A DNA stretch of 6,641 nt from a virus (taxonomy: Duplodnaviria; Heunggongvirae; Uroviricota; Caudoviricetes), in the IMG/VR virus record IMGVR_UViG_2713896729_000007, positions 1 to 6,641 of that record, one strand, 5' to 3'. Under the pieces are notes generated by a model, which was not told the DNA's origin, searched no databases, and worked only from the letters and a program-made list of their open reading frames with translations. Below are positions 1 through 6,641 of the stretch, piece by piece; positions within the stretch are counted from its first letter, which is position 1, and every line of letters begins with the position of its first letter. The position numbers and the translations under genes were made by a program.

Positions 1-216
1 ATGAAATCCATGGACAAGTTAACAACGGGCATTGCCTACGGCACCTCCGCAGGCAGTGCTGGCTACTGGTTTTTACAGTGGCTTGATCAGGTCAGTCCAT
101 CACAGTGGGCTGCTATTGGTGTGCTGGGAAGTCTGGTTCTGGGCTTTCTGACTTACCTGACGAATCTGTACTTCAAAATAAGAGAAGACAAGCGTAAAGC
201 TGCGCGGGGAGAGTAA
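1..216 (+). CDS. Class II pinholin, phage 21 S-like (Qin essQ-like), 71 aa
   Basis: ORF begins at window position 1 with MKSMDK, the dual-start Met1/Met4 motif of S21 antiholin/holin; 71 aa with hydrophobic segments and a charged C-terminal tail ([13 protein letters not shown]); located immediately upstream of an endolysin and Rz/Rz1. Upstream sequence is not visible. Confidence 0.88.
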
Positions 217-220
217 TTCA

Positions 221-565
221 ATGACTCAAAACTATGAACTGATTGTGAAAGGGATCCGCAATTTTGAGAATAAAGTTACGGTAACTTTAGCGTTACGGGA
301 CAAAAAACGCTTTGACGGTGAAATTTTTGACCTGGACATCTCGCTGGACCGTGTTGAAGGTGCCGCGCTGGAGTTTTATGAGGCAGCAGCCAGAAGGAGC
401 ATCAGACAGGTCTTCCTGGATGTTGCTGCCGGGTTATGTGAAGGGGATGAGCTGTCGCCGGAAAAGCGCCCCATAATTTTAGAGGCGCAGAATGTGTGGA
501 TAACCTACAAAGGAAAGCTACCGGGAAGAATTACTGGTTCTCTGAAGACTCCGCCGAAATGGTAA
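221..565 (+). CDS. Holin-coupled 114-aa soluble hypothetical protein in the lysis cassette (possibly YdfR/DUF1327-like, from memory only)
   Basis: ATG at 221 lies 4 nt after the holin stop, with GGGGAGAG upstream as a Shine-Dalgarno; E. coli-like codon usage; no hydrophobic segment. Family assignment rests on recalled similarity of the N-terminus (MTQ.YEL.VKG.RNFENKVTVT) to the Qin ydfR product and is unverified. Confidence 0.6.
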   Translation: MTQNYELIVKGIRNFENKVTVTLALRDKKRFDGEIFDLDISLDRVEGAALEFYEAAARRSIRQVFLDVAAGLCEGDELSPEKRPIILEAQNVWITYKGKLPGRITGSLKTPPKW

Positions 566-803
566 TTTCACCAGCATATTTTTCTTCCAGTAATACCGCC
601 AGCCACTTGAAAGAATTTTGTTGTTGCTGGGACCATTTGGGGTTGAGTGATTCAAGCTGGAGCGATGCCAGTGTTGGTTGCATTTGTTCCTTGGGAATTG
701 AGAATGCCAGATATGAAAATGCGACAGTAAGGGCATTTACATCATCCCGAAGCTTGGAAATGCAGTCGAGCAACTCCTGTAGAGAAATGGTGCTATTGTC
801 CAT
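531..803 (-). CDS. Candidate 90-aa hypothetical protein convergent with the lysis operon
   Basis: ATG at 803..801 is preceded on the - strand by GAGAGG with a 7-nt spacer; a possible TTGAAT-N19-TACAAT promoter lies just upstream; the translation is helix-like and not low complexity. Its 3' end overlaps the 221-565 ORF by 35 nt. It could still be a chance ORF. Confidence 0.25.
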   Translation of the reverse strand: MDNSTISLQELLDCISKLRDDVNALTVAFSYLAFSIPKEQMQPTLASLQLESLNPKWSQQQQNSFKWLAVLLEEKYAGEITISAESSENQ

Positions 804-908
804 AAACAATCCTCTCTATTGTATTTAACTATTCCTTGCCTGATTCAACAGGCCGGGACAGATAAACATATCCAGGGTTCAGAAACCGATAAATCCTGAT
901 AAATATCC

Positions 909-1442
909 ATGAACGTAAAAATCAGATACGGCCTGTCGGCTGCCGTTCTGGCACTGATTGCCGTCGGTGCGCCTGCGCCTGATATTCTCGACCAGTTTCT
1001 GAATGAAAAAGAAGGTAACCACACAACGGCATACCGCGATGGTTCCGGCATCTGGACCATCTGTCGGGGTGCCACGGTGGTGGATGGAAAACCCGTTTTT
1101 CCCGGTATGAAACTGTCGAAGGAAAAATGCGACCAGGTTAACGCCATTGAACGGGATAAGGCGCTGGCATGGGTGGAGCGCAATATTAAAGTGCCACTGA
1201 CCGAACCACAGAAAGCGGGTATAGCGTCATTTTGTCCCTATAACATTGGCCCCGGTAAGTGTTTCCCGTCGACGTTTTATAAGCGGCTGAATGCCGGTGA
1301 TCGTAAGGGTGCATGCGAGGCGATTCGCTGGTGGATAAAAGATGGTGGGCGCGATTGCCGCATACGTTCAAATAACTGCTATGGACAGGTTATTCGTCGT
1401 GACCAGGAAAGCGCATTAGCCTGTTGGGGGATAGATCAGTGA
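909..1442 (+). CDS. SAR endolysin, T4-lysozyme-like muramidase (GH24), 177 aa (Qin rrrQ-like)
   Basis: Catalytic E-x8-D-x5-T motif ([16 protein letters not shown]); Gly/Ala-rich weakly hydrophobic N-terminus ([17 protein letters not shown]) typical of signal-arrest-release endolysins partnered with pinholins; stop codon overlaps the Rz start. Confidence 0.88.
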
Positions 1443-1809
1443 GCAGAGTCGCCGCGATTATTTATGCTCTGGTTATCTGCATCATCGTCTGCCTGTCGTG
1501 GGCGGTCAATCATTACCGTGATAACGCCATCGCCTACAAAGAACAGCGTGATAAAAAAGTCAGTGAGCTGAAGCAGGCGACCGCCACCATTACTGACATG
1601 CAGCAACGCCAGCGTGCTGCTGATGTACTCGATGCTAAATACACGAAGGAGTTGGCTGATGCGAAAGCTGAAAATGATGCTCTTCGGCGCAAGCTTGATA
1701 ATGGTGGTCGGGTGCTCGTCAAAGGAAAATGCTCTGTGCCATCCTCAGCCGAAACCTCCAGCGCCTCCGGCATGGGCAATGATGCCACCGTCGAACTCTC
1801 TCCAGTTGC
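1439..1809 (+). CDS. Rz-type i-spanin, 3' end truncated by the N gap
   Basis: GTG at 1439 overlaps the endolysin TGA (GTGA), preceded by GGGGGA with a 7-nt spacer; N-terminal transmembrane segment ([17 protein letters not shown]) followed by a charged, coiled-coil-like periplasmic region; runs into N run at 1810. Start could alternatively be TTG 1424. Confidence 0.78.
1659..1809 (+). CDS. Rz1-type o-spanin lipoprotein embedded in the +1 frame of Rz, 3' end truncated by the gap
   Basis: ATG at 1659 preceded by AAGGAG; product [19 protein letters not shown] with lipobox VVGC followed by a proline-rich region ([11 protein letters not shown]); lies entirely within Rz in another frame. Confidence 0.75.
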
Positions 1810-1819
1810 NNNNNNNNNN
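1810..1819. other. Assembly gap (10 N), probable scaffold join between two contigs
   Basis: Run of exactly 10 N; truncated genes on both sides; homologous Rz sequences converge on it from opposite strands. Confidence 0.9.
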
Positions 1820-1908
1820 AGAGGATGGCACAGGGCATTTTCCTTTGACGAGCACCCTGCCACCATTATCAAGCTTCCGCAGAAGAGCATCATTTTCAGC
1901 TTTCGCAT
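1820..1908 (-). CDS. rzoD: Rz1-type o-spanin lipoprotein, second copy, 3' end truncated by the gap
   Basis: ATG at 1908..1906 preceded on the - strand by AAGGAG; product [29 protein letters not shown] with lipobox VAGC; embedded in the second Rz. Symbol inferred from the DLP12-like gene order. Confidence 0.65.
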
Positions 1909-2128
1909 CAGCTAACTCCTTCGTGTATTTTGCATCGAGCGCAGCAACATCACGCTGACGCATCTGCATGTCAGTAATTGCCGCGTTCGCCAGCTTCAGT
2001 TCTCTGACATTTTTGTCGCGCTGGGCTTTGTAGGTAATGGCGTTATCACGGTAATGATTAACAGCCCATGACAGGCAGACGATGATGCAGATAACCAGAG
2101 CGGAGATAATCGCGGTTACTCTGTTCAT
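1820..2128 (-). CDS. rzpD: Rz-type i-spanin, second copy, 3' end truncated by the gap
   Basis: ATG at 2128..2126 overlaps the endolysin stop (ATGA); N-terminal transmembrane segment ([16 protein letters not shown]); roughly 88 percent nucleotide identity, by eye, to the reverse complement of 1439-1809. Confidence 0.78.
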
Positions 2129-2622
2129 TGCTGACCCCACAAACAGATTTCACGCTCAATCTCACGACGAGTCATGAGACCTTTCCATTGCTTACCGCCA
2201 GCATATGTCCAGCGACGTAGCTGATCACATGCGTCTTTGATATCGCCCTTGTTTATTTTGCGAAGAAGCGTCGATGTTCTGAAATTGCCAGCACCCACGT
2301 TGTAAACGAATGAGTAAAGAGCGCCGCGCATTGTTTCCGGTATATCGACTTTGATGTACGGGTTAATTTGTCTGGCGACCGTGGCAAGGTCTTTATTCAG
2401 GAGGGCTTTGCATTCTGCTTTGGTATACGTTTTACCGAGCATGATGTCTTTTCCTGTATGCCCGTGACATACAGTCCATACACCAACAATATCTTTGTAT
2501 GGTATGTAGCTGACACCTTCCAGACCATCGTTACCACTTGGGCCAGTAATTAACACTGATGCTATAGCAATTGCTCCGCCACCAATAGCAGCAGCAACGG
2601 CTTTTCGTAATGATGGAGGCAT
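2125..2622 (-). CDS. rrrD: SAR endolysin, phage 21 R-like, T4-lysozyme-like muramidase, 165 aa (DLP12 rrrD-like)
   Basis: Begins [27 protein letters not shown] (SAR domain); E-x8-D-x5-T motif ([16 protein letters not shown]); ATG overlaps the holin TAA by 1 nt; 165 aa. Confidence 0.88.
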
Positions 2623-2837
2623 TATTCACCTCTCGCAGCCTTGCGCTTATCTTCTTTAATCTTGAAATAAAGGTTTGTCAGGTACGTCAGCAGGCCAAAT
2701 ACCAGGCTACCCAGCACACCTATTGCTGCCCACTGTGAGGGCGTGACTTTATCGAGCAGCTGTAAAAACCAGTAACCGGCACTACCTGCTGAGGTGCCAT
2801 AGGCGACACCCGTTGTTAACTTATCCATGGATTTCAT
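2622..2837 (-). CDS. essD: Class II pinholin, phage 21 S-like, 71 aa (DLP12 essD-like)
   Basis: [16 protein letters not shown] dual-start motif; ATG at 2837..2835 preceded by GGTGGGG with about 6 nt spacing. The 86-aa version in the ORF track is an N-terminal extension without a better ribosome-binding site. Confidence 0.85.
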
Positions 2838-3424
2838 AACCCCACCTCGCAGACAAAGCGGGTGTAAATTGAGGGAATACAACGTATCGCAAAAAAGCAG
2901 AAACGTAACAGACTCGGAGTCAGTGAATAACTCAGGTATTGGGTTATCAGCTAATATCGAGACTCAAAAAATGGAAAAATCCGCTCGACGGCGGGTTTAA
3001 GCTGTGTGACGAAGTAACCACTCTTAACAGCATAACCAATTTTTTACGTACGTAAACCACTAAATGATATTTGCGAGAATGCTACCGAGTATTGAAAACA
3101 CCACTACAAATACATAAGCAAATCTCAACAAATAACCAACAAATAATTTCCAGCGTTATTTTTAGCTGGTTTAAATTGAATCTTCAAATTATAGAGCACT
3201 TATAAATAACAGCCATTAATATAAATTGGCTAATAGATTTATTTTTATTCAGCCAAGAGCCATGAATAGGATTCGATAGAAAAAGTTCAGATAAAAATAG
3301 AGATCTACTTCACAAATCAAATGAGAAACCAAAACTTACATCTTGAAATAATCACATTGATTAGATGAATATTTATCGCGCAGTGACATCATTTTTTAAT
3401 AATAGTTCAAAAAAAGGGCTCACG
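2838..3424. promoter_or_regulatory. AT-rich divergent control region between the holin (-) and the porin (+)
   Basis: About 590 bp, strongly AT-rich with many A/T tracts (3050-3400), no convincing ORF, directly upstream of the porin start at 3425; exact promoter elements not resolved. Confidence 0.4.
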
Positions 3425-4507
3425 ATGAAAAAATTAACAGTGGCAATTTCTGCTGTAGCTGCATCAGTACTGATGGCGATGTCTGCTCAGGCAGCTGAAA
3501 TTTATAATAAAGACAGTAACAAGCTGGATCTGTACGGGAAAGTTAATGCTAAGCACTACTTCTCCTCTAATGATGCAGATGATGGTGATACTACTTATGC
3601 CCGTCTTGGCTTCAAAGGTGAAACCCAAATCAACGATCAACTGACTGGTTTCGGTCAGTGGGAATATGAATTCAAAGGCAACCGCGCTGAATCTCAAGGT
3701 TCCTCCAAAGATAAAACCCGTCTTGCCTTCGCTGGCCTGAAATTCGGTGACTACGGCTCCATCGATTATGGCCGTAACTACGGTGTAGCATACGATATTG
3801 GTGCATGGACCGACGTTCTGCCAGAATTCGGTGGCGATACCTGGACCCAAACAGATGTATTCATGACTGGTCGCACCACAGGTGTTGCAACTTATCGTAA
3901 CAATGACTTCTTTGGTCTGGTTGATGGTCTGAACTTTGCTGCTCAGTATCAGGGTAAAAATGACCGCACTGACGTAACTGAAGCTAATGGTGATGGTTTC
4001 GGTTTCTCCACTACTTATGAGTATGAAGGATTCGGTGTAGGTGCAACCTATGCTAAATCTGACCGCACTAATAATCAGGTTATCTACGGTAACAACAGCC
4101 TGAATGCATCTGGTCAAAATGCTGAAGTATGGGCAGCTGGTCTGAAATATGATGCGAACAACATCTATCTGGCTACCACCTATTCTGAAACCCAGAACAT
4201 GACTGTTTTTGGTAATAACCATATTGCCAACAAAGCACAAAACTTCGAAGTAGTTGCACAATATCAGTTCGACTTCGGTCTGCGTCCGTCCGTTGCTTAC
4301 CTGCAATCTAAAGGAAAAGACTTGGGTGCGTGGGGTGATCAGGACTTGGTTGAATATATTGATGTAGGTGCAACCTATTACTTCAACAAAAATATGTCCA
4401 CTTTTGTTGATTACAAAATCAACCTGATTGATAAGAGCGATTTCACGAAAGCATCTGGCGTTGCTACCGATGATATCGTTGCTGTAGGTATGGTTTACCA
4501 GTTCTAA
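3425..4507 (+). CDS. nmpC: General-diffusion outer-membrane porin of the OmpC/OmpF/NmpC family, intact, 360 aa
   Basis: Signal peptide [23 protein letters not shown] followed by [16 protein letters not shown]; conserved porin motifs ([17 protein letters not shown]-terminal VYQF with terminal Phe); position between a Q-like gene and the S-like holin on the opposite strand matches DLP12. The track ORF start at 3365 was rejected in favour of ATG 3425 directly before the signal peptide. Confidence 0.9.
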
Positions 4508-4522
4508 TTTGATTACTAAAAG

Positions 4523-4556
4523 ATATGTTGCGGGAGGCTTTGCCTCCCCAACATAT
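4523..4556. terminator. Long imperfect hairpin 16 nt after the porin stop; candidate bidirectional or - strand (tR'-like) terminator
   Basis: atatgttg-c-gggaggc ttt gcctccc caacatat forms a 15-bp stem with one bulge; on the - strand it is followed by CTTTTAG; on the + strand it is not followed by a T run. Confidence 0.4.
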
Positions 4557-4644
4557 AAGTGGCTCCCTCAAGCCACTTCCTTTAGGAGCACAACCTTGCT
4601 TCTAACTATATAAACCTTCTGTTATATATTACCCTTTATTTTTG

Positions 4645-4669
4645 GGGGCGTCTCAACGCCCCATTTTTA
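4645..4669 (+). terminator. Rho-independent terminator, + strand
   Basis: ggggcgt ctca acgcccc (7-bp GC-rich stem, 4-nt loop) followed by ATTTTTAA; on the - strand it is followed by an A run, so it is unidirectional. Confidence 0.5.
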
Positions 4670-4695
4670 ATAACTTTTAGTAAATAATTGGCGTA

Positions 4696-5058
4696 TTAAT
4701 TAGAGTTATTAACAACGATATCCATCTCTAACCGGATATCTAATGCCATTAACATCCCTTCAATTATGCCCTCAGCCTTCTGTAACCTTTTCCCGATATA
4801 ACCATCAGAGCAGCAATGCTTACCTGCCAGTGACATGAATGTCATACCGACTACATAATAATCTACTAATAAATCGTGCAAATCGCTGTTGTTCTTTTTC
4901 AGACGGGCCATGCACCCGCAAATGATCATCGCGTCATCGTCACAACATTGCGGGCGAGATTTTACTTTTGAAGTAATTAATCCCTTAAAACCGGCGGCAA
5001 TGGACGACCAGGTCACATCTTCATGATTATTAGCCGCCCACGCTCCCCAACGCTCAAG
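4696..5058 (-). CDS. quuD: Q-like late-gene antiterminator, C-terminal about 120 aa; N-terminus lost in the gap
   Basis: Reading frame with paired cysteines (QCCDDD, CGC, KHCC) suggesting zinc binding; stop at 4698..4696; its position relative to the porin and holin matches DLP12 order quuD-nmpC-essD. Identity is recalled from the DLP12 QuuD (phage 82 Q family) sequence, unverified. Confidence 0.55.
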
Positions 5059-5068
5059 NNNNNNNNNN
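5059..5068. other. Assembly gap (10 N), probable scaffold join
   Basis: Run of exactly 10 N separating a 5' lom fragment from unrelated Q-like coding sequence. Confidence 0.9.
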
Positions 5069-5346
5069 CGTAAGGAATCTTCATGCCAGCGGGTATCGCT
5101 GTAACGGGTCAGCTGGCGATTCTTGTCTCCTGCATAGCTGAATGACGTCACCAGCCCTAGTGTGTCCGTAAACTCATAACGGTATTTCACGTTAATCCCG
5201 TTCAGATCATCGCTGCCGGGAACGTTCGTCGAGGCATGAAGATAGCCCGCGCTCAGCGTGGACTGATGTTCAGACGCCCATGCAGGCGCACCGGATACGG
5301 CCAGACAGATGGCTGCGGACAAAATGGCGGCATAAAGTTTACGCAT
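5069..5346 (-). CDS. lom: Lom outer-membrane protein (Ail/OmpX/PagC family), N-terminal 92 aa only; truncated at the gap
   Basis: MRKLYAAILSAAICLAVSGAPAWA signal peptide followed by SEHQSTLSAGYLHASTN...YAGDKNRQLTRYSDTRWHEDS, near-identical to lambda Lom as recalled; ATG at 5346 preceded by GAGAGG with a 6-nt spacer; lies immediately downstream of J as in lambda. Confidence 0.85.
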
Positions 5347-5366
5347 AATTACCTCTCGCTTTTCTG

Positions 5367-5394
5367 CAATAAAAAAGGCGCCAGAAATGGCGCC
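5367..5394 (-). terminator. Rho-independent terminator after J, - strand
   Basis: ggcgcc agaaat ggcgcc stem-loop followed on the - strand by TTTTTTATT; about 20 nt downstream of the J stop. Confidence 0.55.
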
Positions 5395-5414
5395 CGCATA
5401 TGGGTTATGAAAAT

Positions 5415-6641
5415 TCAGCTAATCGTGATACCTGCTGTGGATTTCTTCATCACCACAACCAGCAAATCGCTGATACTGGCTGTGGGATACCAGTCATTTA
5501 CCAGCCACGCTGATACCGAAAACTCCAGCGTCATGTGACCGCGACCAGCAGGCATATCAATAACACCTGTATAAACCAGCGTATTATCCAGCGCGGTACG
5601 GTTATAAATTTCAGCACCGTTTTTCTTCACTATCAGGCGGCATGACGAATAAATATCGTTATTCTCCCGCTCATGTTTAGCGCCACGAAACGCCACCGCG
5701 GGAATAACAATCTGCCGGTCAAACGGCTGATCGTCATAAACCCTGACGGTAATGGTCCCTGATGGCCACCGCTCCGGTGCACGGGAGTCCCGGGGGAAAG
5801 CTTTGCCCACTGTTTTAACGAGATCGCCTTCAATCTGGTTCGCGGACAGTTTTCCCAGAACCCGACAGTTCTCGTTAATCGTGACATTGTTGAGCGTCCC
5901 GGCGTTCGCATTCACACTGCCACTGATATCCGCATTTTTAGCGGTCAGCTTTCCGTCCGGTGTCAGGGAAAATACCGGTGGATTTCCACCACTGGTAATG
6001 GTGGGGGCCGTCAGGCGTTTGAGGAACACGTCGTTCATGAATATCTGGTTGCCCTGCGCCACAAACATCGGCGTTTCATTCCCGTTTGCCGGGTCAATAA
6101 ACGCGATACGATTGGCGGCAACCAGAAACTGGCTCAGTTTGCCTTCCTCTGTATCCTCCATGCTGAGGCCAAGCCCCGCGACATAATGTTTGCCGTCTTT
6201 GGTCTGCTCAATTTTGACGCCCCACATGGCATTCCATTTATCGTTGGCGTCTTTCCACTCTTTCGAAAACTCCTCCAGTCTGCTGGCGTTATCCTCCGTC
6301 AGGTCGACTTTTTCCAGCAGCTCCTTGCCGAGATGGGATTCGGTTATCAGGCCTTTGAAAAAATCCAGGTAACCTTCCGCATCATCGCTCGCCCGACCGA
6401 CGGCCTCCACAAATGCCGATTTGCCAACGGTGTTCACACTGCGGATATAAAAGTAATAATCATGGCCCGGTTTGATATTGATACTGGCGGCTATCCAGTA
6501 CAGCGCCGTACCAAGATAGCGGGCTGTGGTTTCAACCTGCCTGATATCGGTAATCCGCGTTTCCGAGAACCAGAACTCAAACTGTACCGTCGGATCATAA
6601 ACCGCAAGATGCGGCGTGGCGGTTATCTGAAAATAGCCCGG
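5415..6641 (-). CDS. J: Tail tip / host-specificity protein J, C-terminal about 408 aa; 5' end beyond the window
   Basis: Frame is open from the window edge at 6641 ([33 protein letters not shown]...) to the stop at 5417..5415 and ends ...[17 protein letters not shown], matching the lambda J C-terminal region as recalled. The internal start at 6437 in the ORF track is an artefact. Confidence 0.9.

Follow-up and report, generated by a model that had tools for sequence, protein, structure and literature searches.

Tail-to-tail phage-21-type lysis cassettes in a draft Escherichia coli record are very probably a scaffolding artefact at a shared Rz repeat

The window, i.e. the whole stretch of DNA that was analysed, is 6,641 nt long and makes up the last 6,641 nt of JRRJ01000088.1 (GCA_001413355.1), a draft record of 2,393,174 nt. 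Two runs of N, each of 10 nt (1810..1819 and 5059..5068), divide it into three pieces. Piece A (1..1809, genes on the plus strand) is the 3' part of a 5,448-nt contig whose limits were set by the N runs in locus L033. Piece B (1820..5058) is a contig of 3,239 nt with genes mainly on the minus strand, and piece C (5069..6641, minus strand) is the last contig of the record. Its final 15 kb consists of five pieces of at least 2,567, then 2,336, 5,448, 3,239 and 1,573 nt, split by 10-N runs, and all five are prophage or IS fragments. The chromosomal DNA of one of the sister assemblies, i.e. other assemblies of the same sequencing project, matches E. coli HS and further E. coli at 100% identity.

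The plus-strand genes of piece A begin with a pinholin of 71 aa (1-216; PF04971) and a YdfR/DUF1327-family protein (221-565; PF07041), followed by an RrrQ-type lysozyme of 177 aa (909-1442; PF00959) and the 5' fragment of Rz (1439-1809; PF03245), which holds 371 of 468 nt and has a 5' fragment of Rz1 embedded in it (1659-1809, plus strand). An antisense ORF of about 90 aa (531-809, minus strand) overlaps the 3' end of the YdfR-family gene and lies between holin and lysozyme. It was called in all A-type loci examined and corresponds to the RefSeq hypothetical protein WP_000370550.1, which is without a recorded Pfam family. The minus strand of piece B carries a 5' fragment of Rz (2128-1820; 309 of 468 nt; PF03245) with the Rz1 start at 1908, an RrrD-type lysozyme of 165 aa (2622-2125; PF00959), a pinholin of 71 aa (2837-2622; PF04971) and a Q-type antiterminator, QuuD, that is without its first 7 codons (5058-4696). 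An intact prophage-borne porin of the NmpC/OmpD type (3425-4507, plus strand, 360 aa; PF00267; annotated as OmpC or OmpD) sits between quuD and the holin; the identical protein is found in 17,488 blocks of the public collection, i.e. it is extremely widespread. Piece C holds the 5' fragment of lom (5346-5069, minus strand), which covers 92 of about 199 codons (PF06316 positions 1-91 of 199), and the 3' part of the tail-tip gene J (6641 down to 5415, minus strand). Its identity to gpJ/lom of strain NCTC11129 is 98.7%, and in that strain a complete lom precedes a tail-fibre gene.

In both cassettes an S21-like class II holin lies upstream of a lysozyme-family endolysin, with the DUF1327 gene intervening in cassette A. 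The Pfam scores of the two cassettes are E 3.5e-35 and 2e-35 for the holins and E 1.3e-24 and 2.5e-45 for the lysozymes, and those of the two Rz fragments are E 2.6e-20 and 9.6e-19. Each Rz fragment contains an embedded Rz1 start in the +1 frame, i.e. MRKLKMML...GC with a lipobox. We take the holin and endolysin of both cassettes to be like S and R of phage 21, and on this similarity a signal-anchor-release endolysin and a pinhole-forming holin are predicted. The cassettes resemble those of phage 21, DLP12 and Qin in their PF04971 holins of 71 aa, their PF00959 lysozymes with hydrophobic Gly/Ala-rich N-termini, their PF03245 Rz and their lipobox Rz1; unlike in those phages, both Rz/Rz1 pairs are cut by contig ends. 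The best complete-genome matches of piece A carry the RefSeq names essD, YdfR family and rrrQ, and those of piece B carry rrrD, essD, ompC(nmpC) and quuD. Piece B is 99.5% identical to DLP12-like prophages in complete genomes. The labels "Qin-type" and "DLP12-type" that an earlier, sequence-only reading had given to the two cassettes agree with this annotation and are reasonable. The cassettes are two different modules of the phage 21 type, RrrQ/YdfR on the plus strand and RrrD/EssD/NmpC/QuuD on the minus strand.

The variability between the two cassettes was measured on the holins and on the Rz fragments. The holin genes (1-213 versus 2625-2837) differ at 42 of 213 nt, and 33 of these changes are at third codon positions, as the sequence-only reading had noticed from the many wobble differences. 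By codon, there are 28 synonymous and 7 non-synonymous differences, and 64 of the 71 residues are identical. The Rz fragments differ at 41 of 309 nt and share 85 of 103 residues. Divergence of this size in both genes bears out the proposal that we are dealing with different alleles and not with a recent duplication.

Two further observations concern the surroundings of the cassettes. In other isolates a holin-lysozyme-Rz module of the B type that is 100% identical begins 2-16 nt upstream of the holin start codon (window ~2839-2853; L035 5770-6803, L039 and L043), and such a sharp mosaic edge is typical where lambdoid phages exchange modules. In JRRN the B-type module lies behind a different early region (Dam, RusA, KilA-N, DUF968, Q and a DNA methyltransferase), i.e. 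not every sister isolate is clonal. Upstream of the A-type holin, an IS1 InsA fragment is found at a distance of ~760 nt (L033 7531-7803, which is ~760-1030 nt before window position 1), and further upstream of IS1 the same locus has lipocalin-like and DUF1722/2-thiouracil-desulfurase-like cargo genes and a truncated Q gene. Because of this IS1 fragment, the cargo genes and the truncated Q, cassette A may lie in a degraded prophage.

The 5' parts of the two Rz/Rz1 spanin genes form an inverted repeat around the first run of N. Positions 1440-1746 and the reverse complement of 1821-2127 matched without gaps at 268 of 307 nt, i.e. 87.3%, in good agreement with the imperfect repeat of about 310 bp and about 88% identity that had been estimated by eye. 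A repeat search gave arms of 326 nt at 1421-1746 and 1821-2146 (86%), and the BLAST E-value of ~1e-97 for the similarity of the arms is far beyond chance. The left arm is the allele-specific part of the plus-strand Rz (nt 1-309 of the gene, 1439..1747). The similarity of the arms is real and comes from two prophages that carry different alleles of the same spanin genes.

The spacer between the arms was examined in the context of the sequencing project. In 12 loci of this project all 42 of 42 runs of N are exactly 10 nt long, so a run carries no information about distance, and the spacer at 1810-1819 is a placeholder with no measured distance. The two Rz genes together lack at least 97 + 159 nt at this junction. 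The ORFs that run across the gaps, with X residues, have nevertheless entered the protein collection, each recorded once and only from JRRJ01000088.1: two Rz chimeras of 158 aa (1439-1915, plus strand) and 127 aa (1745-2128, minus strand) span the gap at 1810-1819, and a chimeric Lom-N::QuuD-C ORF of 216 aa (4696-5346, minus strand) spans the gap at 5059-5068. We also note that in JRRN01000033.1 (4.67 Mb) 13 ten-N runs occur within 7 kb (L009 1778-8987), with pieces down to 82 nt; the large records of the project are thus many small contigs strung together.

The positions at which the contigs end are conspicuous. We compared the A-type Rz, extended by sister contigs 4 or 76 nt past piece A, with a B-type Rz that was taken beyond nt 309 from strain 120899, which has no mismatch to the 309 nt of the window. 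The two types differ at 41 positions in nt 1-309 and at none in nt 310-447 (138 nt). Piece B ends at Rz nt 309, i.e. at the last allele-specific base, and piece A ends at nt 371, i.e. 62 nt past it. These 62 nt (Rz nt 310-371, at 1748..1809) are identical in both alleles, open the shared repeat at which the assembly broke and are present once in the window; in sister contigs of the B cassette the same 62 nt directly follow nt 309. Downstream of Rz the complete genomes have the same genes with either cassette type, i.e. a 50-aa ORF, DUF1398, YnfO, Nu1/NohD and the large terminase. The YnfO and terminase products do not even differ between strains or between cassette types, and the DNA is ~95% identical over 3 kb (loci L001 and L002, compared by BLAST and without gaps, a global alignment having been spoiled by an IS100 insertion).

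The same pattern is seen throughout the project. Among 12 ends examined in the project assemblies, the Rz-side ends before a gap lie at +62, +62, +62, +64, +66 and +66, and those after a gap lie at +0 (piece B of the window) or at +138 (five cases), each exactly at an allele-specific base. Pieces that follow a 10-N run (window 1820 and 5069; L007-L010 and L033-L042) are 62-66 nt shorter than their counterparts before a gap, and a difference of 62-64 nt recurs at other ends of the same pieces (3,639 versus 3,701 and 3,703 nt for piece A; position 63 versus 1 for piece B). This is the pattern of k-mer graph nodes that end at repeat entries, the node after a gap being shortened at its start by k-1 bases (k of about 63-67). 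The variation of the value between 62, 64 and 66 by assembly suggests that k was optimised per sample. Since a piece after a gap loses k-1 bases, we infer that contigs A and B of JRRJ both really ended at +62, i.e. that the break was symmetric, with two paths entering one repeat. The k-1 pattern of 62-66 nt and the minimum gap of 10 N presumably fit Velvet/VelvetOptimiser. As nothing relevant was found in the literature on the WGS accession series (JRRJ, JRRN and others), the kind of assembler is inferred from these ends and not documented.

The true continuations of the cassettes were sought in the sister assemblies, which for piece B were located by means of the RrrD-type lysozyme variant. 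This variant is almost specific to the project: it occurs in 17 contigs of the public collection, and the ten listed are all from this project. Piece A is found at 100% identity in JRRU (L008) and at 99.94% in JRSG and JRRZ (L007 and L010). Piece B recurs at 100% identity over its full 3,239 nt in JRRI (L041), JRRM (L037) and JRRU (L042), and in JRRZ (L036) 3,177 nt of it match equally well. The JRRI contig (JRRI01000036.1) is especially informative, as it runs for 9.4 kb without N. Its Rz gene has the full 468 nt (155 aa), the Rz1 within it is also complete, and behind them come a 50-aa ORF, Rha, DUF1398, DUF3950 and Nu1; on the other side of the piece there is a complete quuD that is preceded by ylcG, rusA, ybcO and ninE. 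In JRRM quuD runs on into ylcG-rusA-ybcO-ninE in the same way, and L039 and L043 are free of gaps through the complete B-type Rz. For the A type, two loci that are 97.7-98.0% identical to piece A (L012 and L006) have a complete Rz of 155 aa, the 50-aa ORF and the terminase genes. Wherever a complete context was examined, the remainder of Rz and late genes came after the cassette.

That each Rz should continue to a 3' end of its own had been named by the sequence-only reading as the observation that would speak against a joined molecule. For the minus-strand cassette this continuation is seen in three gap-free sister contigs, at 100% identity over the part covered. For the plus-strand cassette it is seen in part, i.e. 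over 76 more nt in sister assemblies and as a complete gene in the relatives with 97.7-98.0% identity.

The neighbours of the two pieces across the 10-N runs are inconsistent between assemblies. After the run, piece A is followed by cusS/cusR/cusC in JRSG, by DUF3313/tehB/tehA in JRRU, by a PTE-family gene in JRRN and by NfeD/MerR (cueR)/glutaminase/copA in JRRZ. Piece B is followed by an IS and nfrB/nfrA in JRSG, by pdeA/nupC/mntH in JRRN, by IS66 in JRRZ, by tail genes and gmhB in JRRM, by aceK in JRRP and by an integrase fragment and an AraC-family gene in JRRU. The distance between A and B is ~172 kb, ~2.7 Mb and ~26 kb in three sister records, and in a fourth assembly the two are in different records. 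Piece B also adjoins aceA in JRRZ (L036 3601-3927, gap 3617-3626) in addition to aceK in JRRP (L038 6870-8691), and this repeated placement at aceBAK suggests a scaffolding error that is systematic and not purely random. As some of these neighbours (nfrB/nfrA and cusS/cusR) lie near DLP12 in K-12, the joins may stem from a reference-guided ordering after K-12, although neither the orientations nor the remaining neighbours agree with this.

The second join of the window, in which truncated quuD and truncated lom meet, is equally unphysical, as codon 92 of lom is fused to codon 8 of quuD. We considered whether the 34 complete genomes that contain both B and C (at least 80% coverage) support it. 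These genomes have defective DLP12-like prophages with iss/bor, and in them J-lom lies on the Rz side instead; B and C in the order of the window were seen in no genome examined.

The tail-to-tail juxtaposition is very probably an ordinary scaffolding artefact and not a structure of the genome; we put the probability of this reading at roughly 0.9. A fixed-length run of N, contig ends at the boundary of a multi-copy segment, other contiguity of the same pieces elsewhere and no such junction in finished genomes are all found here. An invertible segment would have both repeat arms on one DNA molecule at a defined distance, and the arms in the window are connected by a placeholder join only. Of the two alternatives in the sequence-only reading, the scaffolding artefact was borne out by every test made; the other, a real inverted juxtaposition that could mediate inversion, was not supported.

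The proposed course of events is as follows. One E. coli isolate would have two different lambdoid prophages, each with a lysis cassette of the phage 21 type. The two Rz alleles are ~87% identical over nt 1-309 and identical from nt 310 on, where they pass into a conserved late-gene backbone. A short-read assembler of the de Bruijn type would be blocked by this shared repeat, and both contigs would end there. The contigs would then have been written consecutively into a large pseudo-scaffold with a fixed 10-N spacer, which would leave the two truncated Rz genes tail to tail. JRRJ itself presumably has the same two separate prophages as the sister isolates. The locus has the hallmarks of fixed-N joins between repeat-broken contigs of draft WGS records: a 10-N run of fixed length between genes that are cut off on either side, ends that lie at, or k-1 nt past, the last copy-specific base of a multi-copy prophage segment, and the same contigs being contiguous with other sequence in sister assemblies. 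It differs from them in nothing of kind; the one peculiarity is that homologous genes, oppositely oriented, happen to meet at the join and so look like an inverted repeat. Three observations weigh against the artefact: some sister isolates are not clonal with the others, the placements of piece B at aceA and at aceK hint at an order that is not wholly random, and the k-1 trimming of the pieces after the gaps suggests that the joins were written by the assembler itself, and if so, a read-pair signal might lie behind some of them.

This last point bears on the rival that survives best, which we nonetheless hold to be improbable. According to it the order and orientation of the cassettes are real and only the distance is not, i.e. 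two convergent prophages with near-identical late regions were collapsed by the assembler and many kb were skipped as 10 N. The missing k-1 nt of the pieces after the gaps could mean that the scaffold came from an assembler that uses read pairs, and convergent but distant prophages are ordinary on one chromosome, as a complete E. coli genome has a median of 3 places that match a cassette. However, every gap is exactly 10 N and encodes no distance, tens of kb are beyond the reach of short-insert pairs, the nearby quuD|lom join is nonsensical, and the sister assemblies disagree on the placement of the same pieces. Even if this reading were true, it would describe merely two ordinary prophages lying far apart.

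A real close junction, in which the cassettes abut tail to tail as a quasi-palindrome of several hundred bp that could stimulate rearrangement, is far less credible still. The scaffold alone speaks for it, together with the fact that restoring the 62 nt to piece B gives a perfect 62-bp inverted repeat at the gap, which is what a real palindrome would also give in a k-mer assembly. Precedent was sought with pieces A and B together as the query, so that a coverage of at least 80% requires both on one strand within ~3 kb; no such arrangement occurs in any of 5,426 complete E. coli genomes or 50,697 phage records, which counts against a close junction. So does piece B itself, which in three sister contigs of 100% identity runs on into a full Rz and the late genes. 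Moreover, at least 256 nt of Rz coding sequence would need to fit in 10 nt, i.e. a real junction of ~10 nt is impossible without the deletion of at least 97 + 159 nt. If the 3' ends of Rz were in place, the junction would have perfect arms of at least 138 bp with a short spacer, i.e. it would be a long palindrome, and long palindromes are unstable in E. coli through SbcCD cleavage. We think it highly implausible that in JRRJ the cassettes truly converge with only the Rz 3' ends between them, as a quasi-palindrome between two prophage remnants. Were this the case, the convergent cassettes would be an unusual, unstable structure that marks an illegitimate fusion or deletion between prophages.

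Homologous recombination or inversion between the two Rz copies was rejected as the origin of the junction, because it would invert the interval between the prophages and so only exchange the downstream flanks, and each cassette would keep late genes behind its Rz, i.e. it cannot generate a tail-to-tail arrangement. As in prophage-mediated chromosomal inversions, the two homologous modules are in principle substrates for recombination; unlike such inversions, which swap the flanks of the repeats and leave late genes after the cassettes, the window has convergent, truncated Rz genes. The analysis gave no sign that an inversion had taken place.

The biology of the locus is ordinary: two familiar lambdoid lysis modules and one prophage-borne porin, in a commensal-like E. 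coli. The meaning of the case is mainly one of caution, as joins of fixed 10 N in a draft assembly can be mistaken for inverted repeats, fused genes or rearrangements, and three chimeric ORFs that span such gaps have already been called as genes in the public protein collection.
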